A stretch of DNA of 64,000 nucleotides from positions 23,936-87,935 of the forward strand of contig CAZFTF010000002.1 in NCBI GenBank assembly GCA_964521495.1. The letters run 5' to 3'. Positions within the stretch are counted from its first letter, which is position 1, and every line of letters begins with the position of its first letter. The stretch is from an uncultured Candidatus Peribacteria bacterium (lineage in GTDB: Bacteria; Patescibacteriota; Gracilibacteria; BD1-5; JAGOOR01). Of this stretch, positions 9,557 through 63,022 are shown in pieces. The position numbers and the translations under genes were made by a program. The notes below the pieces were generated by a model. That model had not been told where the DNA came from. It saw only the letters and a list, made by a program, of their open reading frames with translations, and did no database searches.

Positions 9557-10477
9557 TTATTTTATAAACCCCCTCACAAAATCCTCTCCAGAAATTCGTT
9601 TCTTGCCTGCTGGTGTGAGTTCATGGATGATGAGGTAGCCATCAGAGAGAGCGAGAGCGGGAAGTCAGTCTTTTATTTGCCAACTCAGGGGCTTGTTAGT
9701 ATGTTTTTCAGGAGATTTTTTCACAGTATGTAGTATAACTTTTGTTTCTCAGAAAAAAGTATAAAGCCCAGGCCAAGGCGTGTAGGCTTGCCAAGCATGG
9801 TGAGTATGATCGAGCGACCAATCGGGCTGGATCTCGCCATCAGTTTTTTCGATATATTTTGTGTAGGTGGCTTCTGAGTCATCTTGTTTCTGAGGTGTAA
9901 GAGTTCCATTATGGAGTCCTTGAATTGCTTCCACGAGGAGTGACCCAGCTCGTTCTCCTGTTTTCTCAAAGAGGGATCCTGTTGTATCGGTTTCGATTAT
10001 TTCCCAAGATTCCTGCACCAAAATATCACCCTCATCCATTCAGAGCGACATTTGCTGGACAGTGAGACCTGTGATTTTTTCACCATCGAGGAGCGCATGC
10101 TGTATTGGTGCTGCCCCACGATATTTTGGGAGGAGGGATGTATGGACATTGAGAAAACCCATCGGTGGGATATCGAGGAGTTCTTGGGGGAGGATTTTCC
10201 CATAGGCGACCACGAGACAGATATCAGGTTTGAGAGCCTTGATGGCTTCGAGAAAATCGGGATTATTTTTGACTTTATTAGGTTGCAGGAGAGGAATGTT
10301 TTTTTCTTTTGCGAGCAATGTTATGGGGGACTGTATGAGCGTATGTCCTCGCCCTCCAGTAGCGTCAGAATTGGAAACTATTGTAACCAATTCGAGTTCT
10401 TTTGAGTCGAGGAGATATATGAGAATATCAGCTGATAGTTGGGGGGTACCAAAGAATATTGCACGGAGTTTTTTCAT
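9557..10477 (-). CDS. fmt: Methionyl-tRNA formyltransferase
   Basis: Track ORFs 10040..10477 and 9749..10039 plus a tail are joined through three TGA codons. Motifs: FFGTP, VVAYGKILP, FLNVHTSLLPKYRGAAPIQHALL. TAA at 9557-9559. Confidence 0.9.
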
Positions 10478-10536
10478 ATATTTGACAAGTTACATTTACT
10501 GATATAATACAATGAATTTTTTAAATAACTTTTATT

Positions 10537-11214
10537 ATGAGCGAAATACTTAGTGAACAGGATATTAGAATACCACATAATCCTATGATGCAGTTTTATA
10601 ATGCGGTGAAGGATATAGAATCATTGTATCCAAAACTCCGTCTGATACAAGATAGAATTGATGGAGAGAAGAAAATCTTTTCATGTACTATTACAATCAC
10701 TGAACCATTATTGCCAGCTCAGGAAGAAGAAATACAACGGGCTGTATCGGACTTAATTCAGGCAATTATTCTGCCTGTATTACCGGAAGGATTTCAAAGT
10801 ACCACACAGGATGTGACTTTTATTGTTCAGGAGAATTCACCGAGTGAAGTAAAACATGATCCAGAAACTAATCTGGAGACTGTTCTTAGAGCAGTAGAAG
10901 CAGAATTTGCTCGTGACGAGATTCATATAGTATACGAGAATTGAACATTTATTGTGTATGGGGCAGCACCCGCGGATCAATCAATATTGAGGGGATCCAT
11001 TATAAATAAAATTCCGCATAATCTTCCATGTCGGTTAGAGTTCAGATCAGGTGCAGAATGGGAAAAAGAACAGGATACAACAAGGACTATAAGAAACACT
11101 AATAGCTCACTTACTAGATTAGAAATACGGTGAACTCGCCCATTTTCTGGTATTGCACTTACGTTAGCTCAGATGGCTGAAGTAATACGAGATAGGGTAC
11201 TTCCACCACGATAA
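10537..11214 (+). CDS. Hypothetical protein (225 aa)
   Basis: Track ORF 10537..10944 continues through two TGA codons to TAA at 11212-11214. No family recognised, and the C-terminal extension is less certain. Confidence 0.45.
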
Positions 11215-11217
11215 TCA

Positions 11218-11748
11218 CTATACTCGAATCTTTTTTACTACTTCCTTATATCGGAGGCATTTTTCTGTGGTTCCTTTACCGGTAAGTCCTACGAAAAACC
11301 ATAAGGCTCAGAGTAAAACAAGAATAATCCCAGGATGACTAGATTTTTTGATCGTTGGTCCCACATCGATTTTGAGTCATTTTGCATCCTTTTTCTCAGG
11401 GGCAGGAACCTGGGTGATAATAGCATCCATAATTGGGCCACCAATGATAATCAAGAGGAGGCCGATGATCGCTTGGCTGATACGGAGTGTCCTGTGTTTG
11501 ATGAGACACCAAGGAAGTAACCCCTTTAGGAGCAGAAAAAGCCCAAGCACCATCAATCCGATGTGTGTATATCTTTCTTGTAGGGGACTTAGTACACCCA
11601 AGAACGGTATATCGAGGATAGATCGACTATCAGCGTACCAGAGCAGCTCTATAATGACCAATCCAGAGACAATATGAAATATCCGTATAGTGCTATCTTT
11701 TGGACGTTGTGCCACAAATTTGGCTACTTCAAGAAGGAGAGGATTCAT
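11218..11748 (-). CDS. Hypothetical multi-TM membrane protein (176 aa)
   Basis: Track ORF 11377..11748 (hydrophobic) is extended through two TGA codons to TAG at 11218-11220. It converges on the previous gene with a 3-nt gap. Confidence 0.5.
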
Positions 11749-12062
11749 AGAAAACGAAGAAAAATAAGATACTTTGAGTTTATTCAGAAACCATAAAATG
11801 CAAGAAGTGTTTTTTTATTGATAACTACTATAAAACAAACAATTCCAGGGGATACTGCAAGATGTATTTATAAAATATCTCTGATAAAATTTGAATGTAG
11901 CAACGTTATTGAAATAAAAAAGGAAAAGGTTATTAATTTTTTGAATCAAGGAGTATAATTTGGTGCTGGTAACATAAAAAATAATAAGTCAATACTCTTT
12001 CTGACGGAAAAAGAAGAAATACACGGAGGAATTATTTGAATTTACAGAGGTTATCTGGTAAT

Positions 12063-15000
12063 ATGAAGTGGAATATGAAAAAACTTGTCCTCATTTTAGC
12101 TCTTATTGTCTGATACTCTTCAGTATTTATGACGCCGTTGTATGCGGCAAGAGAAAAGATAGAATTTAATAATGGTGGATGTAGCTGAATGAACTGTTTT
12201 TTAAAAGGAGTTCAAGATGCTGGAGATAAGTTAAAAATAACTGGAGCTGTAACAGGTGTAGGTATTTCGGATGCTATTCAAGATTTCATCATTTATCTTC
12301 TAGGTTTTATATCCCTCATAGCACTTATTTATATCATGTATGCTGGTGCACAAATGCTTCTAAAACCTGCTGATGAGGAATCAGCAGCGAAAACGAAAAA
12401 AATTATCATTGGTGTTATTTCTGGTATTGTGGTTATATGGTTTGCATGGTGGATGGTGAGTACTATTTTCTTTATTTTAGGGACGGGAAACAATAAGATT
12501 TCATTTATTCCTCAAGCTATTGCAGAAACGCAAATAAGAAAAGTGGATTTTACGACATACAGTAACAGAATCGAAGCACTTAAAACAAAAATCGATGCAG
12601 AGTATAGCCCTGAAGTTATGAGTGAGCTCACTATTTTGATAGATGGAGCGTATGACCATATGCCGGATAGGGGTGATCTCTACCTCAATAAACAGCTCTA
12701 TGATACTGTTAAAAAAGCTATCGCTGACTATAACCTTCACAGAGAAATTATTGATAGATGAATTCTGCAAACAGCACTGCGTAATTTTATAGAATCAGCA
12801 GAGGTTTACATGATTAAATCTGAACCAGAGGCGACTCCACGTACTGGAGATGCCCCACTGTCTGTCACACTGGAAGCAAAAAAAACTATCGATGAGAGTG
12901 GCACTCTGGTACCAAATGATAACTATGTATGGTGGCTGAGAACAGAATGAGGTGGAACACAAATCATCGGAAAAGGTAATATTGTAAATTATACTTTTGA
13001 AACTTCTGGAACATATATGGTATTTCTTACGGTGAACTCCGCGAGTAAAAATAGTCGATGATTTGCTGATGTTATCAATTTTGAAGAAAGCGTCGTATTG
13101 GAAATCGGACAACCCAAGGTTAAATTTATGGTCAAGATAAATGATCAGTTGGTCAATCGGACGTTTAAGATATCTACAAAGGAAGCACTTAAGCCAATAC
13201 GGATTGATGCATCTGAGACACGATTTGCTTCGGGGTATACTACAAAGAATACAGAGTGGGATTTTGATAATGGAAATACTGACTCAAACGAAGGAGATCC
13301 TCAATTTGAAACACAGATGTATGAGCCTGGGGACTATGTTATACAGCTCAAATTGACTCGAAATGATGATGAAGAATTTACCTACCCAATCTTCTTAAAA
13401 ATTGGTGATCCTCTTGCGTCTATATCTACTACAACATGATCACCAAATAAATGAGAGAAAACTACTTTTCAAGCAAAAAAAACATCGAACGAAAATGATG
13501 TCCAATATCTTTGGGAGGTAAAAAAACAGGGGAGTGATGCTATCCTATATACTTCATCAGGTACTCGTTTAGAATATGTTTTCTGAGATACGGGGAAGTT
13601 TTTTGTCACACTGACCTCTATTAAATGAGATGTTCGAGATAAAGATACGATGGAAGTGAATGTGGAGTCACGACCACCAAATGTTCAATTTACAAGTGAG
13701 GTGGTATCTTCTGAGTTACCAAATGTTTTCTTGTTTGATGGCAGTAACTCTTTTGACCCTGATTATCCTGATAATCAAAAATTACGATTTGAGTGGTTTG
13801 TAAATGATACTGCTGTACAGTTAGCAGAAACAAATGAAAGAAATAGTCGTTGAAAATATACTTTTCCCGAAACAGGAATATATCGTGTATTGCTGAGAGT
13901 CACAGATGAGGAGTGAAAAACAAAAGAAGCACGCCATGAGGTAAGGGTTACCAGTATTTTGTCAGTTCAGCTTAACATGCGACCTGCAGTAGTCAAACGA
14001 TGACAGAAAGCGATATTAACTGTGACGGCTCCACGCGCAAAGACGTATGAATGGAAGATGGGAAACAATGAAGTAATTCGTACCGAAACAAATCGGTTTG
14101 TGACGAGCTTCTCTGTCTCATGAGTTATTCCGGTATCAGTCACAGTAACAGACGTAGATGGGGAGAGTAATACTGCCACAGAAAAAATTTATGTCATGGA
14201 AGATGAGCAACCATTTTCAATACTTGACCTCAAGAGCGAGTCTATACTTACCTTTTCTCAAAAGAGTGTCTGTAGTGGAGAAGAGGCTATCACATTTGAT
14301 CGGGCAAATTCAATTTCCTTTTCTGCTGATAGAAGTGTGAATATGGATGGTCGGAATAATGACCTTACCTATTTTTGGAAAATAGGTCTCAATAAGACAT
14401 CTACACAGAAAAATCTTTCCTATACATTTGATGAATTAGGTTGCGAAGAGATTAGTTTGACAGTTTCTGATAAAGTTACTGGCGCTTCCCATACAACAAA
14501 AACTTGGGTAAAGATCGTCAATCTAGCACCTATTTTTAATGATATTCAAGTCGTAGTTGAAAATCTGGATATGGATCCTATGCATGTCGATCTCAAGATT
14601 CTTGGCGCCAAAGATCCTGATGGACTTATTCGTTCCTATACTTGGTATTACTACACTGATCGAGATGAACAGCCTCAATGATTTCGTATTACACGATTAC
14701 CAGAGGCAAATTTTATCTTGCCAAAAATTACCGGGCGGTATTATTTCGCTGTCATGATGGAGGATTCAAATGGTCTTAAAATCAACACAAAAGAAGCTTC
14801 AGAGGTGCCTTTCTCGACGCCAGATTTATATGTAAATACGAATCTCTCGACACCAATTATTGAAAATTTCAAAGCTGATAATGCGGAAGTGAAATTTTGA
14901 GATATAACTGAGCTTTCTCTCGACGTGAAAACACCAGTTGCGAGCGATGTATGAGATAAGTCAGAATATCGATGGGATGTTGACGGGGATGGTTTTTATG

Positions 15001-17342
15001 ACGTCAAAACAACAACACCATTTTATAAATTCAAATATGTGTATCCTGGGGAATACAATCCAAAAGTCAAAGTTACACATAAATGAATATCTGCTACAAA
15101 AACAATAACCATCGTTGTTAAGAATAGTCTCATACCCAGGGCGACAATACAGATGTTAGGAAATAAAATCATTGCCTACAATACTTCATCAGGCATTTAC
15201 CAGAGTGCGAACTGGTATCTGGATGATAAGAAAATTTCTGAAAACAAAGAATATCTTGTATCAGAGATTCAATGATCGACTCTTCAAAATCTCAAACTCG
15301 AAATCTCGGACGGAAAAACCACAGAATCAGCGGTATATCCTATACAGGCTACTCTCAAAAATAAAGTTCTACTCAAAAAAATTACTCGTCCATTAGTTGT
15401 GGCGTCTTCTCTGAGTGGAGGAGATGTCACCGAGACTCCAGATGAGATAGTATGGGAAGATCCTATGACTCCTCTTTATCTCTATCTCGGCGAATCTCGA
15501 GGAAACATACGATATTATGTCATAGATACAGATATTGATATAGATACTGACTTATCTGGTTGAAAAGATGATGATGCTGACAATAGAGGTACTGCTTCAT
15601 ACCGAGGCGGAAGACCATTTCAGATACCAAAGGGCACCAAGAGGGTGACTATTATGAAGATCAGACTGATATGAAATGATAACAAAGATATCGATGTACG
15701 ACAAATTCGTGTTACACGAAAATTCTTAGCTGCTGTAGAACCAGAGATTGTAGAAGATAAGCAAACTCCAAAGATATTTAATCTTTCTCAAGAAGACAAG
15801 GATCGAATTGAAAAACTCAGAAACCTCGTTCAGTGAGCCCCAGAAGAGGAAAAACAGGAATTCAATAAAATTCTGGATCAGTTGGGAGATAACTGGTATG
15901 ATGTTGCTGAGCGTATTCAGACACTCAATTTCTTGTCCAACACAGTCAACGCAAGTCCGACATTATCTGCTGAGCTTAAGAAAAAAATTCTCGAACAAAT
16001 CAGCATTGTTTATACACAAGGAGATGATGTGATAGAGGAAAAACAACTTGCACTCAAAATGATAAAAGAATATCTCGCAAAGAGTCCTAAGAAGGTACAC
16101 ATATTTGGAGATTCAGAAACGACAGGGTTAATCAATGAACTTATTGATAATCCTGAGTATTATGAAGCTAATCTGAAAGTGATTCAAAAGATTATGGATG
16201 ACTATGTAGATCCAGATACGACATTGACTGCAGAAGTGAAAAAAGATATTAAAGAAAAATTGATGATACTTGCTGGGTCTCCCCCAGCCGCAATTGATCC
16301 AGATGTGCCTACTAAAGATGACACATCATCGGGTCGACTTACATGGCTCCTGTGGATTCTTTGAGGCGTGATGTGTATTATATTTGGTAGTGTTGGATTT
16401 ATATATGCTCGTCAACGACTCTCTCAGCATACAGATGCTCCAGAAGAAAAGCTAAATACCACATCAGAAACAATAACATCTCAAGAATCAGAAAAAAACT
16501 CTTCAGATCAGTTTATTTCTCAAGACGTTGCATCTACTACTCCTGATTGGCTCAAAGAAGAAGATTCTTCTCCATTTTGAAATGAAGATGTATTTTCAGA
16601 AAATGTTTCAGAATCTTCTGACGTTCATCAGCCAGAATGGCTCCAGGATACATCGACAGAAACTCTCACTACATCTGAAAAATCTGTTGAACCAATACAG
16701 AGCGAGCCTCCTACAATTCCAGTCAAAAATGATACAGAGGTCACTCCAGTTGAAGAAGTAGCTGCTTCAACAGAAACGGCAGGAGAGATCCCAGATTGGC
16801 TCCAGGGCACATCAGAAGATCAGGATGGTGTGCTAACGGAAGAATCAATCACTCCAGAAGCGAGCGTTCCTCCTGAGAAACAAATTATTCCTGAGACGCA
16901 AATTGAGGGTAGTATTGAAAATAAAGAAACACAAGATGATGATATTCCTGACTGGTTACGATGAGCAGAGAATACTCTTGCTGAGGAGGGAAAAACTTCA
17001 GAAATCTCTAATGATATTTCAGTTCCATCTGATGAACAATTGTTCGTAAACGAAGAAACATCTTCTGATGATATTCAAACATCTGTCAAAGAAGAAACAC
17101 CTCAAAATGATTGAAAAAATATAAAAACTGAAACAATAGAAGATGCAGAAAAAGAATTACTCGAGAGCCCAACGCATTTAATTGAGCCAACTCAAGACGC
17201 ACTCATTGACTCACCAGAAAAGAAAAAGACCGCAAAGAAGAAGTCGCCTACTCGTAAGCCAAAGACAGTTCCAAGTGACCATCTTCTTTCATCAGAGCAC
17301 GATATGCTCCTTCCTTCATCGACAACAGATCACCCTCTCTAA
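12063..17342 (+). CDS. Giant envelope protein (1,759 aa): signal peptide, TrbC/VirB2-like two-TM pilin hairpin, PKD-domain array, Ca-binding-like D-rich loop, helical stalk, TM helix, acidic tail with PDWL motifs
   Basis: Track ORFs at 12189, 13098, 13650, 14196, 14718, 15882 and 16368 are all in frame 0. I translated every gap and found only TGA, never TAA or TAG. PKD-like signatures include GDAPLSVTLEA, WDFDNGNT and RWDVDGDGFYD. Hairpin: IQDFIIYLLGFISLIALIYIMYAGAQMLLKPADEESAAKTKKIIIGVISGIVVIWFAWWMV. TM helix: LTWLLWILGGVMCIIFGSVGFIYA. TAA at 17340-17342. Confidence 0.8.
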
Positions 17343-17350
17343 TTCGTTTT

Positions 17351-19699
17351 ATGGACATTAAAAAAGACACATCATCTGTAAATAAAAGTTCTTTATTCCA
17401 AAAAATAGTGAGGTTTACGATGAGCGATGAGAATTATCAGCCAGAAAAGATAATACAAGCAGCCAGAGAGAAAAAACCAGTGTCATTCTGGAAACATACT
17501 AAGGCCGCTCTTTTGGTATTAGGAGTATTTTACCTTTTGTTGTGTGCTTTTATATTGCTCAATCCTGGATTTTCACTCTTCTTTAATAATGTTTTTGGTA
17601 TCGAGTATGTTACAGTTCAATTTATACTCGAGTATACGATATATGTTTTTTATAGTATTTTTGGTATTTTGTTAGGTATTGTATTTTTATTTTTTTGGTA
17701 TAGATCGATAGTTATCAAGACCCGAAAAAATTACAAACGAATTGTTCTTTGGGTATTAACACTTGTATTTGGATGACTCTTTTTCACCAATGTGGCATTA
17801 TTTGCATGGACCTATACGTGGTTTCTGTCTATTGATTTTACCAATATCAATGAGCGAGTTATTATGTATGACAATGTTCTACTTGGCTATAAACAGAAAC
17901 TACCAAATCCAGAACATTTTGGGTATAGTAAAAAGGTATCAGTGAAAGATTTGTCATTTTACAAAGTCCCTAAAAAGGTCATATGACCTCTCAGTATTCG
18001 CTATGATATAAGTCCACAAATCAGAAAAGTAGTCCGTGAAAATGGTATCTTGCTGAATCGCTGATATTCTTTTGAAATTGATTATAATGGTGATGGTGAT
18101 CCTGATACTGGCTCCGGGGACAATGCTAATGTCGACTTGGCTATTGATAATCCTGAATCTGAAGTTCTCGCTCCTGAATTATTTAATAAAATAGGGCATT
18201 ACAAAACAACCGCCAAGATTCGAGCAATAGATGCTGCAGGAAATAAAAAAGAAATAGACATAGAAATGCCTGATGTTTTGATACAAAATGTTGTAGAAAT
18301 TTCACGAAAAGAGGGTGTAGACGGGGCAAAAATATATTTATTTAATGCCTCAAGTCTTGCGAATCTTGGACAAGCTCGATGGAGTATTCTCGGTGATCCA
18401 GAATCAACGTACGTAGGGTATCAATTTTCTCCGAAAAATATCAAACAATATCCTGCTATTGTTTGTCTCAAGATGCAGCCAATGGATGTACAAGCAAACG
18501 ATCCCTGTGATTGGAGATATGTGATTGATGAAAATATCCAAAAAAATATCACTAACACGGCCATTGCAATAAAGATTGATCCCATTAATCCATTGAAATA
18601 TCAATTCTCTATTGATCCAAAACTCTTACAGGGGGAGATAAAAAAAATCCGTTGGAAAATTGACGGAAAGACATTTGATGGAAAATTTCCTTCAGGAACA
18701 GAGAAAATACTTGAATACACGTTTAAAGAATCAGGAACTTATTTACTGGATGCCGAAATAGAGGATACACTGGGAAATATTGTGAATACTTCAACAGAAT
18801 CGATTTTTACAACATTATTTACAGAACTTAAAAGTGGGTATGCTCTCAAAATATCTGATGAAAATGGAGGGGACTTAGGGAAAAATAATTACAATATACA
18901 TACCAATACTTATTTCCTTCCCGATAGCCCAGTTCCAACAGTGCTGACAATGGATGCCATAGGTATACAATCTGTGAATCCACGCCTTAAGCTCTCAAAA
19001 GTTGAATGGGATCTGGATAACGATGGAATTTTTGAAAAAAAAGGATTGAAAATAAATCCAGAACTTTTATTACCAGAACAATATACTATCTATGTTCGAT
19101 ACACGTTTGAAGACAAAACAGTTGATGGAGATATCAAACCACAAATCTATATCGACAAAGTAATAGTAAAGTGAATTCAAAAAGATATAGATGTTCGTGT
19201 CAGGATTCGTCCTGATCATGACTATGCTCCTGCTCTTGTTCATTTTGATGCAACTGAATCACGAGTACAACGAGGGGAAATACTCAAATTTATCTATGAT
19301 TTTTGAGATGGCAGTAAAGTCTATGAAGGAGAAGGTATTGTCGATTACCGATACAAAGTACCAGGAGAGTATAAGGTGCGTGTCACAGCAGTAACAAAAG
19401 ATGGTAGAAAGGCAGTCAAAGAAAGTATGTTGATCATTAAAAAGCCACAAGAAACCATTGCAATTATCCCAAGTGTGTCTTCTGAAAATGCACAAGCGGG
19501 ATTTCCTATTACATTTGAGGTCATTTCTCAGGGTGATACGGAATCAATAATATGGAATTTTGGAGATAATTCACAAATTGAACAAGGTGAAAGTGTTGTT
19601 CATACATTTTGAACTTCGGGTACCTATTCAATCAGCGTGAGAGCAATATATGAGACAGGTATAGAAAAATCAGAGACCATTACCTACCAAGTGAAATAA
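17351..19699 (+). CDS. Multi-TM PKD-domain surface protein (782 aa)
   Basis: Track ORFs 17351, 17792, 18137 and 19376 share one frame and are joined through TGA. The N-terminus has several hydrophobic helices. PKD-like motifs: IRWKIDGKTF, VEWDLDNDGIFE, FIYDF[G]DGSKVYEGEG (the motif Gly is a TGA) and IWNFGDNSQ. It starts 8 nt after the previous gene. TAA at 19697-19699. Confidence 0.75.
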
Positions 19700-19703
19700 A
19701 TTT

Positions 19704-20747
19704 ATGTTTTACGATATTTGACTCTTTTTTGAAACATTCTGGCAACCGCTGAGCATTATTTCTCTTTCAGCAGTTGGGTATTGTAGCCTGCTTCATTGGT
19801 ATGGTAAGATTTCCAAAACCCAAACTCTCGCCCTATTCTTAACAGGTATTATCGTGATAACCTGTATTTTTCTTCCATTTAATTGGTCTATAGGAAATTC
19901 TGGGCAAACACAAGAAATAAACCTCTTTTTCTTCACGCTTAACATCGAATGAAATAATTTTATTCAAGCTCTTCAGACAACCCTAGAATCCGGAAGTATT
20001 ACGAATAATGGGGCAAATAACGCTGTTACGTTTTTTCTCGCTTTCCTCGAAGAAATATCCAAGCTATGACTTTTGATTCTTCTGGTCAAAAAAGTTCTGA
20101 AATGGCCAATGGTATTGATAGGATTTGCTCTTCTTGGAAAAATAGTGTACGAATACTACGGCACAGAGGGTATTCCTCTTCTTCATACGACTTTGATTGG
20201 TATAGGGGGTTTTATTCTAGTGGTCGTTCTTGGTATTTGTCTGTCATTTTCTCGTCAGCTCGAGAGTGTATCAGATTATGTTTTTAGTATTGCACTGGTT
20301 GCAGCCGGTTTTGCTTTTGCAGAAAATATCAAATATATGATGGATCTCTTTCATAATGGACAAACAGAAGAAATGATTCTTCATAACGCAATTGGGCGTT
20401 CTATTTTTTGATATCTCTCACATATTTTCTTCAGTATGATTTGTGTCCTCATTTATGCTCGTGGAAGGTTTGCATTTTTGAGAGCAATTGACGATATTGG
20501 CAATGTCTCGCCTCTTCAGAAAACACTTGGTTGGTCAACCTATACTCTGCTGATGACTTGGTTGGGGTTTATTGGGGGAGTCATCGTAGCCACCCTGATT
20601 CATGGGTACTATAATATTTTAATTAACCAGGATCCAATAATACCATTCATTATTCTGGTAATCGGTTTTTTGTTTCTAGAACTCTTTGTCCTCCATAGTT
20701 TCCGAAATACGACACGCTACGGGCATCTCGAAGCCGCAATGGGATAA
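19704..20747 (+). CDS. PrsW-family intramembrane metalloprotease-like protein
   Basis: Track ORFs 20073..20411 and 20436..20747 plus an N-terminal part are in one frame with 4 TGA codons. Polytopic membrane protein carrying FLEEISKL (EExxK), AAGFAFAENIKY and HNAIGRSIF[G]YLSH, which match the PrsW protease motifs. Confidence 0.7.
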
Positions 20748-20770: not shown

Positions 20771-20806
20771 AAATATCTCCTATTTTTATAGGAGATATTT
20801 TTTTAT
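20771..20806 (+). terminator. Rho-independent terminator after the prsW-like gene
   Basis: Perfect 13-bp stem aaatatctcctat/ataggagatattt with a tttt loop, followed by a T-run. Confidence 0.6.
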
Positions 20807-20875
20807 ACTCAAAATATTTGCATTCTATAAAATGATATGATAGGATGATTGTGTTCATATTTCTAATTCATTTTT

Positions 20876-23800
20876 ATGAAAACAAAGAAAAAGCTCATCG
20901 CAATCGGTGTAGCAGCCTCAATTCTTACCGCACTTTTTGTGTTGGATCCAGGAGGAAGAATAGGTTCCCTCGCCTCGAGGATGCTCGATCAAATCCCAAA
21001 TCCAACTGTGGATCACCAGATAATACCGCGTCTTCCCAATAATGTATTTTGAAGAACAAATGGTGACGAATATTATCATCCTCGAGGCGTTGCTGTTTAC
21101 GGAGATAAGCTCTTTGTCACTGACTGGTATAGGCATCAAGTTAAAGTAGTCAATAAAAGCACGGGGGAGGTAATAAGAATTATTGGTAAACATGGATGAG
21201 AAAATGGTGAATTTAGTTATCCATTTAATATCGTCATTGATGAGAAGAATAAATTTTTCTATGTGACTGATCTCAACAATCATCGTGTACAGAAATTCAA
21301 CCTTGAAACATATGCATATGTAGCTAAAATTGGTACTCAATGAAGCGGTCCTGGTGATTTTGTCAACCCAACAGGTATTGCTCTGGATGTAGAAAATAAT
21401 CGTCTCTATGTCTCTGACTACCACTGTCGTGTTCAGAGATTCGAGCTTAGTACTCTTCAGTATCGTGATACTTTCGGAGGAACATGTGGAAATAATAATA
21501 ATCAATTTAATCGTCATAATGGTTATGGTCCTGAATCATTGGAAGTTGATTCGGAAGGAAACGTCTATGTTGCCGATACATGGAACAATCGAGTTCAAAA
21601 ATTTACCCATAATGGACAATATTTAGCTACTGTTGTGTCGAGTGCGACCACTAATACAACTGTTACATGGCCTATGGGGTTATTTATTGATAAAGGAGGA
21701 TATCTCTACGTTACATCTGCTTATACACATCGAATCAAGAAATTGGATATCAAAGCAGCAAACAATCCACTCATCAGAGAATATGGATCTTATGGAAATG
21801 ATAGTGATGAGTTCCATTATCCAAGAGGCATCTTTGTAGATCAAGAGACAGATATTTATGTTGCAGATACTAACAGTCATCGTATCAAAATCTTTCAACA
21901 ACATATCATCGTGCCTACGGCTCCAACAAGTCTTACAGCGACACCAAATGTCACTGAGATTGGGCTGACATGGACAGCAGCTTCACCAAGAACAGGGACA
22001 CCTCTTCTTGATTACATTGTAGAATATAAAAAGACAACTGCTGATGATTGGAGAAGGTTGAGTGATGGTATAGGCACCAATACTTCTGCGACTATTGCAG
22101 GGCTTGATGCGAATACAGATTATCAATTCCGCGTCTTTGCTCGTAATACTGCACGAGAAGATGGAGAAAAGAGTGCTTCCATTCAAAGAAAAACTCTCAA
22201 TACCCTCGCACCAAAAGCACCTACTAATCTCGTGGCCGGTATTGGTAATAGACAGATTAATCTCAGTTGGACAGCATCGAATACGAACGGATGATCGGCT
22301 ATCAAGGATTATATTGTAGAATTTAGGCTAAGTGGTGGTCAATGGCAAGTTTTCCCTGATTGAGTTCGGTCTACTACAACAGCTGACGTAACTGGTCTAG
22401 CAAATGACACTCGATATGATTTCCGCGTAAAAGCTGAAAATAGTACGTGAACAGGAGCATTTAGTCCATATTCTGCTATTGTATCTCGTGCACCCACTGC
22501 AGATGATAAATGTAATGATATCGCTGGGGTTCAAACAGTAGTCCCAAAGAATCTTAAAAGAAATTCACAAGGAGATTGTGTATGTATCAATGAGGGTGTC
22601 AGAATGTCGGTTGCAGATCCAGCAACATGTACTTTGACATGTAGTGATACGCGTCGTGAACCTGCAAAACCACAGTTCAAAGTTGTATATGATGACGGTT
22701 ATCCACGACTCTATGAAAATAATCAAGATACTGTCGGTACACCTATGACGGCAAGACGAATAATTATTAGTGACGATGCGGACGGTACTGTGTTAGATAC
22801 AAATTCATGGATTCCTCTTTTCCGACCAAATGTGCAACCATTTTATGATGGTCCGATTATTCAAGACGCACTTCGACTCTCTCTCGCGAGAAATGGGAAT
22901 ACTCTCAAAATGCTCTGGTATGGAAACCGTGTAGATGATAGAATAGAACGTGTTAAAGGACGTATTATTATCGACGGAAGTCCTGATATTAGATGGACCG
23001 GATTTGTAGAACAAAATACGCTCGAAGATAATACTGACAAGATACGTATTGCTGATAATAATCCTAAAGTGATTTATTTTGATATGGTTGTAAATCCAGC
23101 GATTGATTCATTTATTGCCAAGTTTGATCTCGGATCTCGAGAAGATGCCTGTGTCGAGAAGCCTCTTATTATCTTTGATAAAAATGCCTCTGATGCTACA
23201 GGTAGTATGAATGATCAATTATTGCCAATTAATACAGCCACAGCTCTTACTGCAAATGCTTTCAGTCGACCATGATATCAATTTGCTGGCTGGAATACAG
23301 CTGCTGATGGCGAAGGAACGAACTACGCTAACAGAGCGAATTACACGATGGAATCTGCCAGAAATATTACTCTCTACGCAAAATGGGCTGCTTCTACCTA
23401 TCCTATCACCTATAATGCCAATGGCGCAACGAGTGGTTCAGTTCCCGCTGCTCAAACAAAAATACATGATGTCGCTCTTATACTTGGAGCGAACTCAAGT
23501 GCTCTCGTAAAAACTGGATACACCTTTTCTGGTTGGAATACCGCTGCTGATGGTACTGGTACCAATCATGCTGCTGGAGCAAACTATACAGCAAATGCTG
23601 CACTAAATCTCTACGCAAAATGGACTCTGAATACACACACTGTGAGTGCTGCTGCCAATATTCAAAATGGCTCAATAACTCCTGCTACTCGATCAGTTGG
23701 GCATAATGCAACGACTACATTTACAGTTACTCCAAATCCTGGATATGCTATTGCTTCTGTAACAGGATGTGGCGGTACGCTCTCAGGCAGTACATATACT

Positions 23801-26800
23801 ACCTGACAAATTACAGGCGCATGTACTGTTAGTGCAGTATTTTCTCTCAATGCTGCTGCTTCATGTACTGGTACTCGTCCGGCAAATTCTATTATAAAAA
23901 TGGATAACGGTGCCAGCACGGTATCTCATCCGTGGACACATAGCGTATCAACTGGCCCATATATTCTTTGTACATTCCAATGTAATGCAGGTACTACTTA
24001 TAATAGTTTCACTAATACTTGCGATGCTGTAGCTGTTACATATCCTGTCACATATAATGCTAATGGCGCAACTGGTGGTTCAGTTCTTATATCCCAAATA
24101 AAGACACACAATGTTAATCTTACACTTGCGGGCAACTTGGGTAATCTCGTAAAAACTGGATACACCTTTGCTGGCTGGAATACAGCTGCTGATGGCAATG
24201 GTATCAATTACAATGTTGGATGAATTTATACAGCAAATGCTGCAGTAATTCTCTATGCTAAATGGATAGCAAATTCGTATAACATTTTTTTTAGCGGTCA
24301 AAGTGCTGAAATAAATGCTAATCCTATTTCAAAAACAGTTGTTTTTCCTGCAACAACTGTTGGTACTCTTCCATCAAATCCTATCAGAACAGGATACACT
24401 TTTGGAGGATGGTATACAGGCGTCCTTGGAACCGGAACACAATTTACAGCAACCACAACCATATCAGCAAATCTCACAGTGTATGCTAAATGGACACCTG
24501 TAGCTGCCACATATGCTGTCACTTACAATTCCAATGGCGCAACGAGTGGCTCAGTTCCTGCTGCTCAGACAAAGACACACAATATTGCTCTCACACTTGC
24601 TAACAACACAGGTAATCTCGCAAAAACTGGATACATCTTTACTGGTTGGAATACAACTACTGATGGTACTGGTGCTAACTATACTGCCGGAGAAAATTAT
24701 ACAGCAAATGCTCAGGTAATTCTCTATGCAAAATGGACTGCAGCCCCTATCAACGGATCTTGCGGAACAGCTTCTACAGCATATCCATCAGATGCAACAT
24801 GATATGGTAGCTCCACTCTCTGTGCAACTGGTACATCAAATCCTGCAAACCCAGTATTTCCAGTAGTAGGCACACCTACAACATGGACATGTACTGGTGC
24901 AAATGGCGGAACAAATAGTGGCACATGTACTGCGACAAAAACAGCAGCAACAACCTATGAAGTTACTTACAACGCCAATGGTGCAACAGGAGGTACAATT
25001 CCTACTGCTCAAACAAAGACTCATGATATTACTCTCGTACTTGCAAGTAACTCAGGTAATCTCGTAAAAACTGGATACACCTTTGCTGGTTGGAATACAG
25101 CTACAGATGGTACTGGTACCAATTATGCTGCTGGAGCAAATTATATAGCAAATGCTCAGGTAATTCTCTATGCTAAATGGACTGTAGCAGCAGATATTAC
25201 CGCTCCAACAGTAACTCTCGATCTCCCAGCAACATATACCGCACTGACAGTACCTGTAACTATTACACCAAGTGAAGAAAATGTGAGTTACTTCTTCACA
25301 GAAGGACCTACCCCAGCAAATGGAATCTCCGTACAGCCACCTACTACACCACGTGCAGATGCATCAGGATGGGTTACGACAAAACCAACAACATACACAT
25401 TCCCAGAAGCTGGATCTCGTACACTCTTTGTGTGGGTAAAAGATACTGCAGGAAATGTATCAACAAGCCCTGCACAAGATGTAGTAGTTATTACTCTTCC
25501 AGAGCCTACTGCTCCAACAGTTGTTCAGGTAACTTCCACGAAACCAAATGGTGCTTACAAATCAGGCACTACTATCCCAATCACGATAAAATTTTCTCGA
25601 CCTGTCATAGTCACTGGTATACCAACATTGATACTTGAAACTGGTACAAATAATGTGACGATTCCTTTTAAACAAAAGGAAGCTGATGGTGAAACTCTTA
25701 CTTTTGAGTATATCGTATCTGACGGCAATATATCACCTGATCTTAACTACGTTGCTACTGATTCTCTCAAGTTGGATACAGCCGCTATCACTATCAAAGA
25801 TTCTGTATCAGGCGTAGCGGTGAATCGTACATTACCTGCTCTTACTTCTGCAGAGAGTCTTGCAGGAAGCAAAGATATCGTCATTGACACAACAAAGCCA
25901 GCTGCACCAGTTGCTATAATTGTGCCACAACAGGTAAATATTACTCTTTCATCTGCATGAACAGGATCATATATTGCAACCGGTAGTACGATGACTATAA
26001 ATGTTGCTTGTGCTGCAGGTGAAAAGGTGAAAATCTACAACCATCTTTCTCTTTTACCAATCCAGGGAGCTAATTGTAGTAATAATCTCGTGACTCTCTC
26101 AATCGATCTTTTTGCACAGGCATGACCATATAATTATTATGCTACTATCACTGATATGGCCGATAATGAATCAGATCGTTCTCCTCGTATTATGGTTCTC
26201 AAAGGACAAACAGAAAGCAGTGCTCCTAGTACACCAGATCTTGAGTCAATCTTTGATCTCGGTATATCAAGTACTGATAATCTCACGAGCGAAACACAAC
26301 CAAGATTTACTCTCACCTGTGTTTCTGGTTCCACGGTCAATCTGTATGACAGCACGACTCTCATAGGTACTGCCCCATGTATGGCAGATACCGCTCAGAT
26401 TCTCCCACTACAACCATTCTCATCTGGTGTTCATAGTCTCACAGCAAAACAGAGTATCAATGGTACCACTTCAGCAACTTCAGGTGCTCTCAGTCTCACA
26501 ATAGATACAGCGCCACTCACAGTGGTAATTGCTCGAGCTGCAGAACAATCTGAACCCGCTACTTCATCAACTATCAAGTTTACTGCTACATTTAATAGGG
26601 CGATTGATGCGAATTCATTTATCTGCAGTGATGTCACCGTTGTGAATGGTTCTTGTACAAATATCGCACTGCTTGGCAACAATGCATACATGGTGACTGT
26701 CACAGCTACTGCCCAAGGTATTGTCAAGGCTATCCTCTATCCAGGACGAGTACAGACCAATGCTGGTAATACCAATACAGAAGCAACAGGTGTAAATACA

Positions 26801-27631
26801 GTGACATATGGAACACCGGCAGCTACAGCAGAATGTAGCGCTCTCAGGAGTCATACTGTTCCAAGACCAAAGTCTTCATCTCTCGGTGGACTGACTCTCT
26901 GTAAAGCAGGAACACCATCAGCAGTATCATATAGTAGCTCTCGACTTCAATGGACATATCAATGTCGTAGTGCAGTCGATGGGACCACTGCTTCTTGTAC
27001 TGTTGCCGCGGTTCTCGATTCAGCACCAAGTTGTGATCTCAAACCAGTCAATGCTTTACCGTTTGATGAATGTAGTATTGAGAATACGAGCAATATGTTT
27101 AACTTCCATACATACCTCTCTTGTCTTGGTGTTGTCCCAGAAAAGAAATCATGTACCGATGCAGGTTGTACACAGAATGCGAAACGACAAGAACTTATCT
27201 CTATAGGTGTTCGTCTGAGAGGAATCCCTCTTGAATCTGGCTATGAATGTCAAAAGAGCCATACCGATACCGTCAAGGGTGTAGCATCGTGGGTGTGTGA
27301 AGCGGCTGAAAAAGCTCAAACAGCTGGTCTGATTTCAGCAACGAACAAACAATTCCGACCTCTTGATACCATGACTCGTTCTGAGGCATACTCAGTTCTT
27401 ATGAAGAGTATCTGTGTTCATCCAGAAACAACTTACAAGAACTGGCAGACAGAGGTAGCTAAAGCTGCAAAAGAATATGGATTTACTACTCGTAGTGTTG
27501 CTACATTTGAACCAAATAGACAAATCCTGCGTCAAGAACTCTTCGTTCTTGCTGCTCGTCTCGCTGAATATGCAGCTGATAATCCAGGTCTTTGTGAACC
27601 GCTCCCTGAAGAACTTATCTGTGAATCGTAG
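20876..27631 (+). CDS. Giant surface protein (2,251 aa): N-terminal anchor, NHL repeats, two Fn3 domains, six Listeria-Bacteroides (Flg_new) repeats, Ig-like modules, Cys-rich region, SLH-like C-terminus
   Basis: Track ORFs at 21539, 22604, 23348, 23900, 24479, 25283 and 26156 are all in one frame, and the gaps contain only TGA. NHL: YVADTWNNRVQKF, LYVSDYHCRVQRF, IYVADTNSHRIKIF. Fn3: APTSLTATPNVTEIGLTWTAA...YQFRVFARN and NLSWTAS...YDFRVKAEN. Repeats of the type YNANGATSGSVPAAQTK...KTGYTFxGWNTAxDGTGTNY...LYAKW. C-terminus: FRPLDTMTRSEAYSVLMKSI and FEPNRQILRQELFVLAARL (SLH-like). TAG at 27629-27631. Confidence 0.85.
23168..25180 (+). repeat. Intragenic array of six ~75-80-aa Listeria-Bacteroides-type repeat modules with long near-identical DNA stretches
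   Basis: Each module ends in LYAKW. DNA strings such as aaaactggatacacctttgctgg(c/t)tggaatacagct recur near 24157 and 25067, and ccaatggcgcaacgagtgg(t/c)tcagttcc recurs near 23415 and 24532. Confidence 0.7.
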
Positions 27632-30566: not shown

Positions 30567-31136
30567 CTACCATAGATTTACCTCAGGAAGACTATCATCA
30601 ATAATCATAATACTATAGTAATTAGTCGCTGAACAGCCAGGAGTAGAGTCTGTACATGCTGTTTGACAATTTCCTACTTCGTATATCTGATTGTCGTTAA
30701 TATATCAAGATTGGTCTCCGGGACCATCGGTATCATTGAGGGGCGTATTGGATGCGCTTTCAAAAAGCGTTCCTACTGCATAGCCATTCCCCCCATCACA
30801 GACTCGATAAAGATATCAACAGAGCCATGTTCATTGGCATAGAAATTTATGATCTGTTCCATCTGTTTGGTTTGAAAGAGGATCAAAAATTCATTTTCCA
30901 TTATTCATACTTACTATCAGATCATGAACAGCACCATACGACTGAGGTGGCGCACCAGTCGTACTGAGTGATCCTAGTATAATAGTATTAATAGCATTAA
31001 TATCTGCTATTCGTGTTGTATCCCTCGCCTTCTTGATATACCCAGTATACGCAGAGAGACCAGCAGTTGCGAGGATAGCAATAATAGCCATCACGACCAT
31101 AAGTTCGATAAGGGTAAATCCTGGTTGTTTTTTCAT
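30567..31136 (-). CDS. Type IV pilin (prepilin with class III signal peptide)
   Basis: N-terminus MKKQPG/FTLIELMVVMAIIAILATAGLSAY is the canonical prepilin cleavage/methylation motif. Track ORF 30891..31136 is extended through four TGA codons into a Cys-containing C-terminal domain. TAG at 30567-30569. Confidence 0.8.
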
Positions 31137-36437: not shown

Positions 36438-38009
36438 TTATTTACTGAGTTCCGCTATTTCATTCTCTATCTTTTGCACCTCCTCGTAATCAGCAGTGTA
36501 TGTTTTTTGCCATCTATTCACCATATCATCCACAATAGCTTGTTTTGTCTTTGTACCCAATACGCCTGCATAAGGAGAGGAGAGACTGTCAATGACTTTG
36601 AGATCGAATTGATATTGGGCAAGAGCGTTTTTTGTAAGGGGTCAGAAAATAGCTGTGTCTTTATGATTAAGGTAACCATACTCCTTGAGAAGTTTTTGAA
36701 GTGTGCGAATTTCAGGGTGTACTTGATTGAGTTTAAGTGCAGGAACTTTGGCTATAGTAGACTCAAAAACTTTTCTTTTCTCAGCAGCTATGGTGACACG
36801 TTCTCATTTGATTCTTTCTAACTCTACATTTAGGGCATCAATTTTAGCCTTTTTTTCAAGATAAGACGCATAAGCTTCCTCAAGAGTTGATTGAGTTACA
36901 GGACCATAAAAACCAGCCCCGATATCATCTTCACTGGTTACGATTTGTTTCGCAAGTTGGAACTTGAGTATAGCATCAACAAGTCTCTTATTATAGAGCC
37001 CGTCAATCTCAAATTTGAAATATCCCATTTCTTTGAGCATTTTTTGGAGTTCCCGTATATCAGCACTTTTGGCCCCATCGTAAACATCACCGCTAATTGC
37101 ACTTTCTGTGCTGTCATCAAGGTTTGACGCTGAATCATTGGTATTATTGAGAGAATCATCGGTAGTATTGGATGTTGTTGTAATGCCATTTGATTCTGGC
37201 ACGGTAGTAGTAGTGGTTGTGTCTCATTGGAGGACAGCCCGAAGTCGTGATCGAGTCTTGGGTCAGTACACTCCAGCACCTTCATCACTCCAACTCGATA
37301 CAATTCATTGAGCTTTTTGGAATTTGAAAACAGAATCTCTAAATTCTTGATCATAGGAACCATCCACTTCACCAATCAATGCATTAACTCGTTCCAGAAG
37401 TCGTTGAACTGTTTTGATGTTTTCACTGGTTGTCGCACTTGAAAGAGAAGAGGTAAACGGATCAAAACTGGTCGTCTTTTTAGGGGGCGCTACTGTCGTA
37501 GTTCCCGGATTACTACAGTCACCTGGGATTGTATCGAGATTGGTAGTATCCAATTTGTCCGTATCTCACAGAGTAGCGTAGACTGTTTGAACACCGAAAT
37601 TAATAGCACGGCAAAGACCTTTCTGGCCTGATCCCATATAGATATCGAGTCGAGGAAGTTTGGAAGCTGTATTAATAGCTCCTCCTCGGTCGAGAACAGT
37701 ACCTTGGAAGTTGAAATCATAGGTCTTCCCCTTGATAGTAACACTTTGGTTGATGGCAATGCGAGTATTAAATGGTATATTTTTTGGAGCTGCAATCGCA
37801 CCAATACGTACTTTAGCACCTGACGCGGTCGTTTTACCTTCACCGTTCATACGGATTTCATCTTCATAGTTTCCATGGAGATAGAAATCTTGTCATTCTT
37901 CTGGTGAGTAGTAGGCTGAAACGAGATAGAAACCACCTTCTGCACGAACGATGGGGGTAAATTGTAAACAGATGGCTGCTAATGTAAGAACGGAAAATAA
38001 ACGACGCAT
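36438..38009 (-). CDS. Secreted cell-wall protein: 3D (MltA/RlpA-like) domain plus three PG_binding_1 repeats
   Basis: Track ORFs 37566..37850, 37305..37553 and 36804..37202 plus tails share one frame and are joined through TGA. Signal peptide: MRRLFSVLTLAAICL. 3D-like: ASGAKVRIGAIAAPKNIPFNTRI...LDRGGAI...RLDIYMG. PG-binding repeats: VQRLLERVNALIGEVDGSYDQEFRDSVFKFQ, LQKMLKEMGYFKFEIDGLYNKRLVDAILKFQ and LQKLLKEYGYLNHKDTAIF[G]PLTKNAL. Confidence 0.75.
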
Positions 38010-40863: not shown

Positions 40864-42006
40864 TTATTGTACGATGACATCGGAGAGATGCATGATTGGG
40901 GTGAGAATGGCGTATGCAATGAGTCCTACCCCGATAGCCATTACGACAATAATAACTGGTTCAATGATTTTATTAATAGCTGAAACAGCTACATCCACTT
41001 CTTCGTCATAAAAGTCAGCAACTTTGATAATGATGCTGTCAATTTTTGCTGTCTCTTCACCTACCTTGATCATCTGTGTAACCATATCAGGAAATAGAGG
41101 ATCTCATTCGAGAGACTTCCCCATAGTGATACCTCGCATCACATCATCACGGAGGAGCATAATTCGTTGACGGTATACTTCATTACCCATTGCTCATGCT
41201 ATAATTCTGAGTGATTCTACGATAGAGATTCCGCTTCCCATCAAACTGGCTATGAGTCGTGAGAATCGTGCAAGAAGCATTTTTTTTATCAAATTACCCA
41301 CACCAGGGATATGGAGTACAAATCTGTCAGTCATAAAGAGTCCTCATTCGGTCTTTCGCCAGTTTCTCCAGATGAAACCAATCACGAAAGGTGATGCAAT
41401 AAATAGATACCAGTAATTTCCTGTGAAGGTACTGATATTAACTAGTATTTGTGTTGATAGGGGTAATCCTCAAAAATCTGAGAATAATCCAACCAGCGGG
41501 GGTACTACTTTCCACATAACCACAAATAAAACAATAACCATCACTGAGATAATTAAAGCGGGGTATACCAGTGCTCCAATCATTTTTCGTTTCAGAGAGG
41601 AGAGTTTTTCGATTTGAGAAGCGATTTCAAGGAGTGTAATATTGAGTTTACCTGTTTTTTCCCCTGATTCCACCATAGCTATTTCGGAATCTCAGAAACT
41701 TTTTGGAAATTCTTTTAACGTTGCAGAGAGATTTTTACCAGAATGAATATTTTCAATCATCTTGGCTTCCACTTTTTTTACTGCTGGATTTTTTTGTTCA
41801 TCATGAAGTATTTTAATAGATTGCAAGACAGTAAGACCGGCGTTGACCATAGTTGCAAGCAATCGATAAAAAGTCATCTTATCTTTTAGCTTCATTTTTT
41901 TACCAGAAATCAAAATATTATCAAAACTTTCCAACCAGCTTGTACGACGTACGGCTTTTGGTGCATCAAATTTTTCAGAAAGAACAATGATAGTATTATT
42001 GGACAT
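40864..42006 (-). CDS. pilC: Type IV pilus assembly platform protein PilC (GspF family)
   Basis: Track ORFs 41692..42006, 41470..41676 and 40864..41085 plus the translated gaps share one frame (5 TGA, no TAA/TAG). Two GspF repeats are visible (FYRLLATMVNAGLTVLQSI..., FSRLIASLMGSGISIVESL...), with a C-terminal TM segment. Confidence 0.85.
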
Positions 42007-42009
42007 ATT

Positions 42010-57495: not shown

Positions 57496-57569
57496 CTGTC
57501 AAGGTGTTGTAAGGGGGAAAAACTCTTTTCACTTGATTCCATTTTTCAGGTGTGGTACGATGACCAGGT

Positions 57570-62970: not shown

Positions 62971-62992
62971 AATATAATTTATATTGTATAGT
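62964..62992 (+). promoter_or_regulatory. Sigma70-like promoter for the STAS gene
   Basis: TTGACA (62964-62969), a 17-nt spacer, then TATAGT (62987-62992), about 30 nt upstream of the ATG at 63023. Confidence 0.45.
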
Positions 62993-63022
62993 ATGAGTGT
63001 ATTTCGTTCATAATCTTTTTTT

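Follow-up and report, generated by a model that had tools for sequence, protein, structure and literature searches.

Results

A giant gene read in genetic code 25

The stretch of DNA analysed here (the window) comprises 64,000 nucleotides (nt) of contig CAZFTF010000002.1 from an uncultured Candidatus Peribacteria bacterium of the Gracilibacteria (assembly GCA_964521495.1), and this work concerns one gene on its plus strand (12063–17342), whose 1,759 codons specify a protein that joins a short membrane hairpin of the type IV secretion system (T4SS) pilin family to a giant immunoglobulin-like (Ig-like) ectodomain. The gene is best explained as encoding a conserved envelope protein of the Gracilibacteria, the fused form of a two-component pair made up of a VirB2/TrbC-family hairpin and a giant Ig-like surface protein.

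The frame contains 25 TGA codons and no TAA or TAG ahead of its terminal TAA, as stated in a preliminary description of the sequence, which had found it broken by TGA only. In a codon-aware alignment of 16 orthologous genes, TGA columns face glycine 1,515 times, against 208 for the runner-up residue and a glycine background of 5.3%, and tryptophan falls outside the eight residues most commonly found opposite TGA. The genetic code of this organism is therefore code 25, in which TGA encodes glycine, and this agrees with the names carried by the closest genomes, which are Candidatus Gracilibacteria or "Peribacteria" metagenome-assembled genomes. TGA is also read through in all the long housekeeping open reading frames (ORFs) of the window (UvrC, NrdD, fmt, ArgRS, FtsA, FtsZ and FtsK). 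The TGA at 12759–12761, covered by the peptide IIDRGILQTALR, specifies residue 233 of the protein, which is glycine in 12 of 15 orthologues. Gene callers using the standard code would shatter the whole window.

Domain organization of the protein

Kyte–Doolittle hydropathy places a signal-peptide-like segment at residues 5–30 and transmembrane (TM) segments at 70–102, 111–143 and 1423–1451, the first three of which, together with the short charged loop KPADEESAAKTKK, bear out the preliminary reading of a signal peptide followed by two TM helices. The signal-peptide-like N-terminus (residues 1–28, MKWNMKKLVLILALIVGYSSVFMTPLYA followed by A; 12063–12146) aligns with the signal peptides of free-standing pilins and is presumably cleaved. 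It is followed by a region predicted to be extracellular (residues 29–68; 12147–12266), for which alignments and AlphaFold2 indicate a Cys-x4-Cys motif (C40, C45) and a helix; C45 is invariant in two orthologue alignments, the first cysteine shifts in position, and the same cysteine motif is present in free-standing relatives. The hairpin itself, with the sequence GAVTGVGISDAIQDF...STIFFIL over residues 61–140, matches Pfam model PF18895 (T4SS_pilin) at residues 69–135 (12267–12467) and is modelled as two long helices, TM1 (about 73–99) and TM2 (about 113–140), on either side of the loop (100–112). A disordered linker (residues 141–154; 12483–12524), with a predicted local distance difference test score (pLDDT) below 50, ends in A152-I-A154 just before E155, a candidate site for signal-peptidase-type cleavage, and leads into a conserved three-helix domain (residues 155–245, ETQIRKVDFTTYSNRI...; 12525–12797; helices at pLDDT 70–84) that contains the glycine TGA codon mentioned above. 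An AlphaFold2 model of residues 43–232 (pLDDT 65.7) has a helix at its positions 3–20, followed by two long helices packed as an antiparallel hairpin, a disordered linker and a bundle of three helices.

Most of the ectodomain is an Ig-like array (residues 258–1125; 12834–15437) delimited by Pfam, iterated hidden Markov model (HMM) searches, and AlphaFold2 and Foldseek analysis of an orthologue. The PKD-like modules that the preliminary description had reported without an exact count number seven, both in Pfam (seven stretches each for PKD_4, 98.8 bits, and PKD, 76.8 bits) and by iterated HMM (267–338, 379–441, 460–532, 555–627, 643–709, 750–816 and 952–1019). The array also includes the stretch 820–950, which is beta-rich and has neither a domain model nor a structure, and the stretch 1020–1125, which corresponds to one Ig-like domain in the orthologue model. 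That model covers the last 457 ectodomain residues of the orthologue, not of the window sequence, and shows two further beta-sandwiches, one with an acidic loop, followed by a helical stalk and a TM helix. By alignment, the last beta-sandwich of the window protein (residues 1126–1225; 15438–15737) carries the acidic loop DTDIDIDTDLSGGKDDDADN (1155–1174; 15525–15584), in which one glycine is encoded by TGA and the D, T and N residues are invariant; the loop is disordered in the model, and calcium binding by it is putative. Foldseek comparison of the orthologue segment returns only tandem Ig-like structures (E 8e-5), among them the adhesin SiiE and the grappling-hook protein GhpA, but these matches are generic, and SiiE and GhpA are secreted by other systems. 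The helical stalk (residues ~1240–1410; 15780–16292), located by conservation and by helices 228–392 of the orthologue model, has no assignable Foldseek match.

The stalk is followed by TM3 (residues 1426–1449; 16338–16409; assigned by hydropathy and the orthologue model), after which the sequence YARQR begins an acidic, low-complexity tail (residues 1450–1759; 16410–17339) that has a Lys-rich end and is predicted to be cytoplasmic. The ectodomain thus spans about 1,280 residues (141–1425) rather than the 1.6 thousand proposed earlier, since the last 310 or so residues lie behind TM3 and are probably intracellular. The tail carries four P-[DE]-W-L motifs (nt 16542, 16632, 16791 and 16947), whose fuller form, [DE]-[IL]-P-D-W-L-[KQR], occurs four times and, within the coding frames of the window, is unique to this gene. 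The motif persists down to relatives of about 30% identity, where its last copy forms the extreme C-terminus (...DIPDWLK).

The hairpin belongs to a pilin family

Over the whole protein, PF18895 scores 34.5 bits (cut-off 26.6) and is covered from profile position 6 to 71 of 71; the N-terminal 154 or 233 residues alone still score 28.9 bits. Residues 1–135 align end to end, including signal peptide and cysteine motif, with free-standing pilin-like proteins of 130–170 residues. In BLASTP, the first 154 residues and the free-standing pilin of a related clade (L029; loci are designated by L and representative proteins by P) share 35% identity across 144 aligned columns (E 1e-22); the latter protein passes both PF18895 (37.0 bits) and the TrbC model PF04956 (34.3 bits, cut-off 27.9); PF04956 scores are lower for the free pilin of L025 (21.4 bits) and the pilin of L030 (17.4 bits).

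A profile of the hairpin, built from residues 43–146 of ten orthologues and used in an exhaustive search of representative protein clusters, retrieves 18,212 clusters at E ≤ 1e-3 and 839 at E ≤ 1e-10, and free-standing proteins of 130–170 residues match it at 85–135 bits over profile positions 2–99, cysteine motif included. The 150 best representatives comprise 66 single-hairpin proteins of at most 200 residues, 71 proteins that carry multiple hairpins in tandem, and 13 longer single-hairpin proteins, six of them above 450 residues. The earlier statement that such proteins are normally small and free-standing hence describes the single-hairpin group, but not the 71 multi-hairpin proteins; the architecture of the window protein is as unusual as had been supposed, given that only six of these 150 are single-hairpin proteins above 450 residues and that a few of those between 201 and 450 residues look like fragments of the same family. 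Among the longer single-hairpin proteins, fragments of the giant family are seen in P0028, P0087, P0126, P0151 and P0162, and a family motif or the alignment confirms this membership for four of the proteins above 450 residues.

The 71 tandem-hairpin representatives are single ORFs with two to eight hairpins, such as P0016 (433 residues, five hairpins), and could be polytopic proteins or pilin polyproteins. In a published survey of T4SS in the Patescibacteria, the pilin arrays described consist of separate genes, and tandem-hairpin proteins do not feature (PMC12102498; Quinonero-Coronel et al., 2025).

Conservation of the fusion

The giant protein is represented by 14 full-length protein clusters at 28–69% identity. 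Twelve of these were aligned with the window protein, and the hairpin is present in ten, the remaining two starting inside it. In a collection holding one genome per species the giant gene was found at 21 loci, or 22 counting a metagenome contig (L001). The hairpin lies inside the giant ORF at 17 loci, while four are cut at the 5' end or have no detectable hairpin, L012 is frameshifted and L023 is split; wherever the 5' end is present and intact, hairpin and giant share one ORF except at L023, L012 and L024, the last of which was not resolved. In L012 (CAZJBQ010000007.1) a frameshift separates the hairpin from the rest of the protein (ORFs 9857–10483 and 10281–15338). This locus was considered as a genuine split and rejected: the frameshift falls within the conserved helical domain and is probably an error or a pseudogene rather than a clean fission. 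Overall, the fusion is kept in about 20 genomes of Gracilibacteria or "Peribacteria" at the species level. Individual orthologues have been named "Type IV secretion system pilin" or "PKD repeat protein" by automatic annotation.

Measured as the fraction of sequences sharing the commonest residue, conservation is 0.86 in the hairpin and 0.93 in its loop, against 0.79 in the PKD array, 0.54 in TM3 and 0.41 in the tail. No other part of the giant is as well conserved as the hairpin. The preliminary description had cast it as the anchor of the giant protein, and it does sit in the same ORF, but its role is probably larger, as its conservation compared with that of TM3 argues against a passive anchor; on sequence grounds, "anchor" is probably too weak a term.

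Split and intermediate forms

Comparison of orthologous loci reveals that hairpin and PKD-bearing part are adjacent but separate genes in four independent assemblies of a related clade (L023, L029, L030 and L031). The pilin gene of this split form encodes 147–167 residues and ends in TAA or TAG a few residues past TM2. In L029, L030 and L031 it is separated from the giant gene by 7–26 nt, and in L023 the reading frame of the giant begins shortly upstream of the stop codon of the pilin gene. Many free-standing proteins are closely related to the split pilin (60–97% identity), all of them 147–167 residues long, so that this pilin is not a product of sequencing error. The split giants (1,645–1,722 residues) lack the hairpin and begin with an N-terminal signal sequence of their own, and they retain the three-helix domain, PKD matches, the C-terminal TM segment and four IPDWLK tail motifs, the last of them at the C-terminus. 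A gene for a protein with TM segments and PKD modules follows the giant gene in this clade as well. Stop codons behind the hairpin in orthologues had been put forward as grounds for doubting the fusion; they do exist in this clade, but the giant there has gained its own signal peptide, and the split form explains the fusion rather than refutes it.

An intermediate arrangement is found at L013/L025, where directly upstream of a fused giant gene lies the gene of a free pilin that shares 61% identity with the hairpin of this neighbour. The 64-kb window contains no free pilin gene. In a crude neighbour-joining tree of the giants the split clade is nested among fused lineages, which suggests that the split state arose by fission of an older fusion. 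The occurrence of the same two components in fused and split form constitutes a classical Rosetta-stone argument, by which the pilin and the giant probably act together.

A candidate processing site behind the hairpin

All 24 fused forms examined carry [A/S/T/V]-x-A in the linker after TM2, 16–33 residues past the helix and directly ahead of the conserved helical domain (A152-I-A154 in the window protein). This motif aligns with the expected signal-peptidase sites of the split giants (predicted as VSA/A, TAA/S and TYA/A, the slash marking the cut). Free pilins end 7–12 residues past TM2, slightly before the linker motif, so that a hairpin released at this position would be slightly longer than a free pilin and close to it in size. 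The fused protein may hence be a precursor that is cut into a pilin and a type-I giant at A152-I-A154/E155, a view favoured by the fact that the related clade produces pilin and giant as two polypeptides. Maturation of RP4 TrbC and of VirB2 involves cleavage at the N- and the C-terminus, the latter carried out in RP4 by the signal-peptidase-like TraF, and this processing is a precedent by analogy for cutting behind TM2 rather than evidence of it.

Operon partners and genomic surroundings

Eight nt past the giant stop codon begins a gene (17351–19699, plus strand) for a 782-residue partner protein, which combines TM segments at its N-terminus with a PKD ectodomain (PKD_4, 91.7 bits). Such a partner follows the giant gene in every locus that reaches past it, fused or split, and in the loci of the window clade it has 750–780 residues. 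The predicted cytoplasmic N-terminus of the partner bears a recurring motif (SSLFQKIV in the window; SLLSEII, SLLSQIL and SFLDEIL at the divergent loci L021–L023), which may represent an additional linear motif for a cytoplasmic partner common to both proteins.

Four nt further on lies a gene for a 347-residue PrsW-family intramembrane protease (19704–20747, plus strand; PF13367, 41.8 bits, cut-off 23.5), whose product has hydrophobic segments and, by eye, EE and H...N motifs (FLEEISK, HGYYN). PrsW is present in all 18 loci of the window clade that extend far enough, and it is missing beside the split loci and beside L021 and L022, which are divergent fused loci. That PrsW accompanies the fused state as a general rule was considered and discarded, as L021 and L022 are fused and have no PrsW. 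The protein resembles the site-1 protease PrsW of Bacillus subtilis in its Pfam match and its multi-pass membrane topology, but the known substrate of the latter is the anti-sigma factor RsiW and the operon described here has no sigma/anti-sigma pair.

A terminator-like hairpin with a 13-bp stem and a T run (20771–20810, plus strand; found by sequence scan) closes the three-gene unit. No promoter is claimed, since a promoter scan gave 27 sites against a mean of 32.8 in shuffled sequence. The outer flanks vary among loci of the window clade. Directly past the terminator of the window, a second giant surface protein of 2,251 residues (20876–27631, plus strand) combines NHL repeats, two fn3 domains, six Listeria-Bacteroides repeats, a Big_13 domain and a C-terminal SLH domain, so that the giant, its partner and this protein form a run of surface-protein genes of about 15 kb. 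In many other loci of the window clade (L005–L020) a two-P-loop ORF of about 872 residues, ClpB-like by sequence, lies 3' of the three-gene unit; its equivalent in L001/L002 has precomputed Clp/AAA Pfam matches, and the window has the NHL/SLH giant in its place.

Type IV pilus genes (N_methyl pilin, PilC and PilB) are found elsewhere in the window, on the minus strand at 30567–31136 and 40864–43269. In the split clade (L029, L030 and L031) a prepilin peptidase (A24_N_bact) lies about 6 kb upstream of the pilin gene, and inspection by eye of the L021 flanks identified an ORF resembling a prepilin peptidase as well as pilin-like ORFs that have a methylation-type motif at the N-terminus. In genomes of about 1 Mb, this loose proximity in three lineages may be due to chance. 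The window also encodes a sortase, a FemAB-family peptidyltransferase and a protein with three PG_binding_1 repeats, at 57552–58523 (plus strand), 62005–63180 (minus strand) and 36438–38009 (minus strand), wall functions of Gram-positive type that fit a monoderm envelope. No LPXTG-type signal was noticed in the giant.

Discussion

Relationship to known systems

The VirB2-like pilins of the Patescibacteria have been surveyed with PF18895 and PF04956 and were found in 1,948 assemblies, in arrays of 2–11 genes, with virB4 or other T4SS genes adjacent in about 58% of assemblies (Quinonero-Coronel et al., 2025). The same study reports that a T4SS-like machine and pilin arrays are widespread in the phylum, that one cultured species cannot do without its pilin array, that the function and the adhesin of the machine are not known and that "no adhesins such as PrgB" were found for the T4SS of the phylum, and it does not mention pilin fusions to large proteins. 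The window hairpin resembles these pilins in its signal peptide, cysteine motif, two TM helices and (D/E)EE..K.KK loop, and in exceeding the PF18895 cut-off. In contrast to the surveyed pilins, which are small, free-standing and often located in arrays or near virB4, it forms the N-terminus of a 1,759-residue protein within a three-gene unit. The hairpin is thus, by sequence, a member of the PF18895 family without the family's usual small, free-standing and T4SS-adjacent features. In the literature searched, one other work cites PF18895, and only as a domain enriched in freshwater. The fusion is undescribed in that literature and is a new architectural variant, outside any described adhesin family.

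The TrbC/VirB2 pilins of diderm T4SS (PF04956), such as RP4 TrbC and Agrobacterium VirB2, share the layout of the hairpin, and the L029 homologue passes their model. The window hairpin differs from them in having no PF04956 match, no solved pilin matched by profile or by fold, and no VirB machinery nearby, and its host is thought to be monoderm. A pilin-like hairpin from monoderm conjugation is provided by the Mbov_0395-family conjugal transfer protein of the Mycoplasma integrative and conjugative element (NF045849), which is the only NCBIfam model to match; the window hairpin scores 18.8 bits and the split-clade L029 pilin 38.8, both below the cut-off of 40, and this is a resemblance only.

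A pilin module that covalently carries an adhesive or Ig-like module is known from FimH of type 1 pili and from modular type IV pilins (PilB and PilC of Streptococcus sanguinis). The logic of joining a pilin to an adhesive module is shared with the protein described here, but those proteins belong to a different pilin superfamily, and their adhesins are much smaller and lack a C-terminal TM segment and cytoplasmic tail. To our knowledge, no modular form has been described for VirB2-type pilins. Among predatory or epibiotic relatives within the Patescibacteria, Vampirococcus lugosii encodes giant PKD-bearing membrane proteins that have been proposed as host-attachment factors (PMC8080830). These are likewise very large, but the passages of that study dealing with pilins, PKD domains and giant proteins report no pilin hairpin.

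A probable pilin-coupled surface apparatus

Taken together, these observations argue for a pilin-coupled surface apparatus, in which the hairpin serves as a specific interaction module, the Ig-like array and the co-encoded TM and PKD partner form a contact structure, and the fused protein is probably a precursor; we assign this reading a probability of about 0.55. The topology, cleavage and adhesive role that we infer for the protein, and any link to T4SS, can be set out as follows. Removal of the signal peptide would leave the short cysteine-containing N-region outside the cell, TM1 would run inward, the charged loop (EES..KTKK) would lie in the cytoplasm and TM2 would run outward. About 1,280 residues would then be exposed, comprising the three-helix domain, about ten Ig-like domains, the acidic loop and the helical stalk, before TM3 returns the chain to an acidic cytoplasmic tail of about 310 residues with four PDWL motifs. 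TM2, oriented from inside to outside like a signal sequence, could act as an internal signal with a cut at A152-I-A154/E155, and signal peptidase I is a candidate for making this cut, as is, in the window clade and as suggested by synteny, the PrsW-type protease of the operon. The hairpin would couple the giant to a pilin-like membrane assembly of the cell at a fixed 1:1 ratio, the Ig-like array and the co-transcribed partner would form a surface contact or adhesion structure, most plausibly for attachment to host or prey, and the tail motifs would recruit a cytoplasmic partner.

Several results weigh against this reading. The expected resemblance to T4SS pilin models holds for PF18895 but not for TrbC, as PF04956 gives no match in the window protein even at E ≤ 10. 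Foldseek comparison of the residue 43–232 model with PDB finds no VirB2 or TraA match at E ≤ 0.001; given this result and the pLDDT of the model, no claim of a VirB2 fold is made, and CagL was dismissed as a structural relative, its E value of 6.8 being meaningless. Searched against PDB sequences, the hairpin profile recovers only TM5–6 segments of G protein-coupled receptors, the human C5a receptor among them at E 9e-5. Kinship with these receptors was rejected as compositional and topological mimicry, a false positive of the kind to which profiles of TM hairpins with charged loops can lead, and the case for pilin-family membership therefore relies on full-length homology and not on the TM helices alone. 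The linker motif lies, at 16–33 residues past TM2, beyond the c-region of a classical signal peptide, and the absence of PrsW from L021 and L022 means that PrsW is not a universal processing enzyme. The ectodomain is tethered at its C-terminal end by TM3, an arrangement more in keeping with a structure on the cell surface than with a subunit of an extended pilus. Adhesion, for its part, is inferred from the type of domain and from the literature on related organisms.

The genomic context weighs in the same direction. In accordance with the preliminary description, the scanned ORFs of the window include no VirB4, VirD4 or relaxase-sized ATPase, and no T4SS gene was found within about 10 kb of any of the roughly 25 loci examined. 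VirB4 and VirD4 are also absent from the precomputed Pfam annotation of L001–L003, L025 and L029–L032, and the only P-loop ORFs of at least 450 residues in the flanks of 19 genome loci are ClpB-like by sequence. A link to T4SS consequently derives from the family name and the literature. The free-standing relative P0193 (locus L032) lies in housekeeping surroundings, among ribosomal and tRNA-synthetase genes, while the contigs that carry two others, P0037 and P0041, are too short to be informative.

A more specific version of the pilin-coupled reading, which we consider rather unlikely, holds that the gene encodes a polyprotein supplying one VirB2-type pilin and one giant per translation, the two staying together as the adhesin-pilin unit of a T4SS-like apparatus of the Patescibacteria. 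If so, the pair would be the host-contact adhesin that the 2025 survey could not find (PMC12102498), and the IPDWLK repeats would be its connection to a motor or scaffold in the cytoplasm.

Alternative explanations

The lack of T4SS genes around the loci, the structure search without a pilin fold and the housekeeping surroundings of the L032 pilin are all compatible with a simpler explanation, in which the hairpin is a two-helix membrane anchor drawn from a common Patescibacteria module and the protein is an envelope scaffold or S-layer-like component unrelated to pilins or secretion. The next gene past the operon, which encodes another giant surface protein with an SLH domain, also accords with it, as does TM3, which would already provide a second anchor. 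This explanation is tenable but doubtful, for it fares poorly with the behaviour of the hairpin itself. Whereas TM3, a true plain anchor, is conserved at 0.54, the hairpin reaches 0.86 and its loop 0.93; in four assemblies the hairpin has been lost from the giant, which gained an ordinary signal peptide, and yet it has been kept as a gene immediately upstream; an additional free copy precedes the fused gene in L013/L025; and the split-clade copy of L029 passes the TrbC/VirB2 model.

The topology predicted above places both ends of the hairpin outside the membrane and would therefore allow a C-terminal extension, so that the intact, uncleaved fusion could be a modular pilin, a minor subunit of a VirB2-type filament or platform bearing the Ig-like array as an adhesin at its tip or base. 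Free pilin genes do coexist with the fused gene in L013/L025, and no other adhesin is known for the T4SS of the Patescibacteria (Quinonero-Coronel et al., 2025), but TM3 and the 310-residue cytoplasmic tail tether the C-terminal end of the protein and are hard to square with departure of a subunit from the membrane, the split clade demonstrates that the covalent link is not required, and the window has no free pilin gene, all of which render this possibility improbable. Finally, an artefact, with TGA acting as stop in a string of short ORFs or with hairpin and PKD part misassembled near 12760, as the preliminary description had allowed, can be dismissed as highly implausible: the standard code breaks the frame 25 times and orthologue L012 is frameshifted, but TGA columns overwhelmingly face glycine, the long housekeeping ORFs of the window all read through TGA, residue 233 is mostly glycine in orthologues, and the recurrence of the same continuous ORF in about 17 independent assemblies from different projects speaks against an assembly join.

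Implications for the Patescibacteria

The Patescibacteria account for a large share of bacterial diversity and live mostly attached to other cells. The link between fused and split forms turns the notion that pilins may help these bacteria attach to their hosts into a testable interacting pair, with a candidate cleavage site, a conserved loop and a tail motif. It also indicates that the pilin hairpin is used beyond small, free-standing proteins, in giant fusions and in tandem multi-hairpin proteins. If the polyprotein version of the pilin-coupled reading is correct, the protein would be the first VirB2-family pilin in a modular or precursor form and would provide a direct handle on how code-25 Gracilibacteria grip their hosts.

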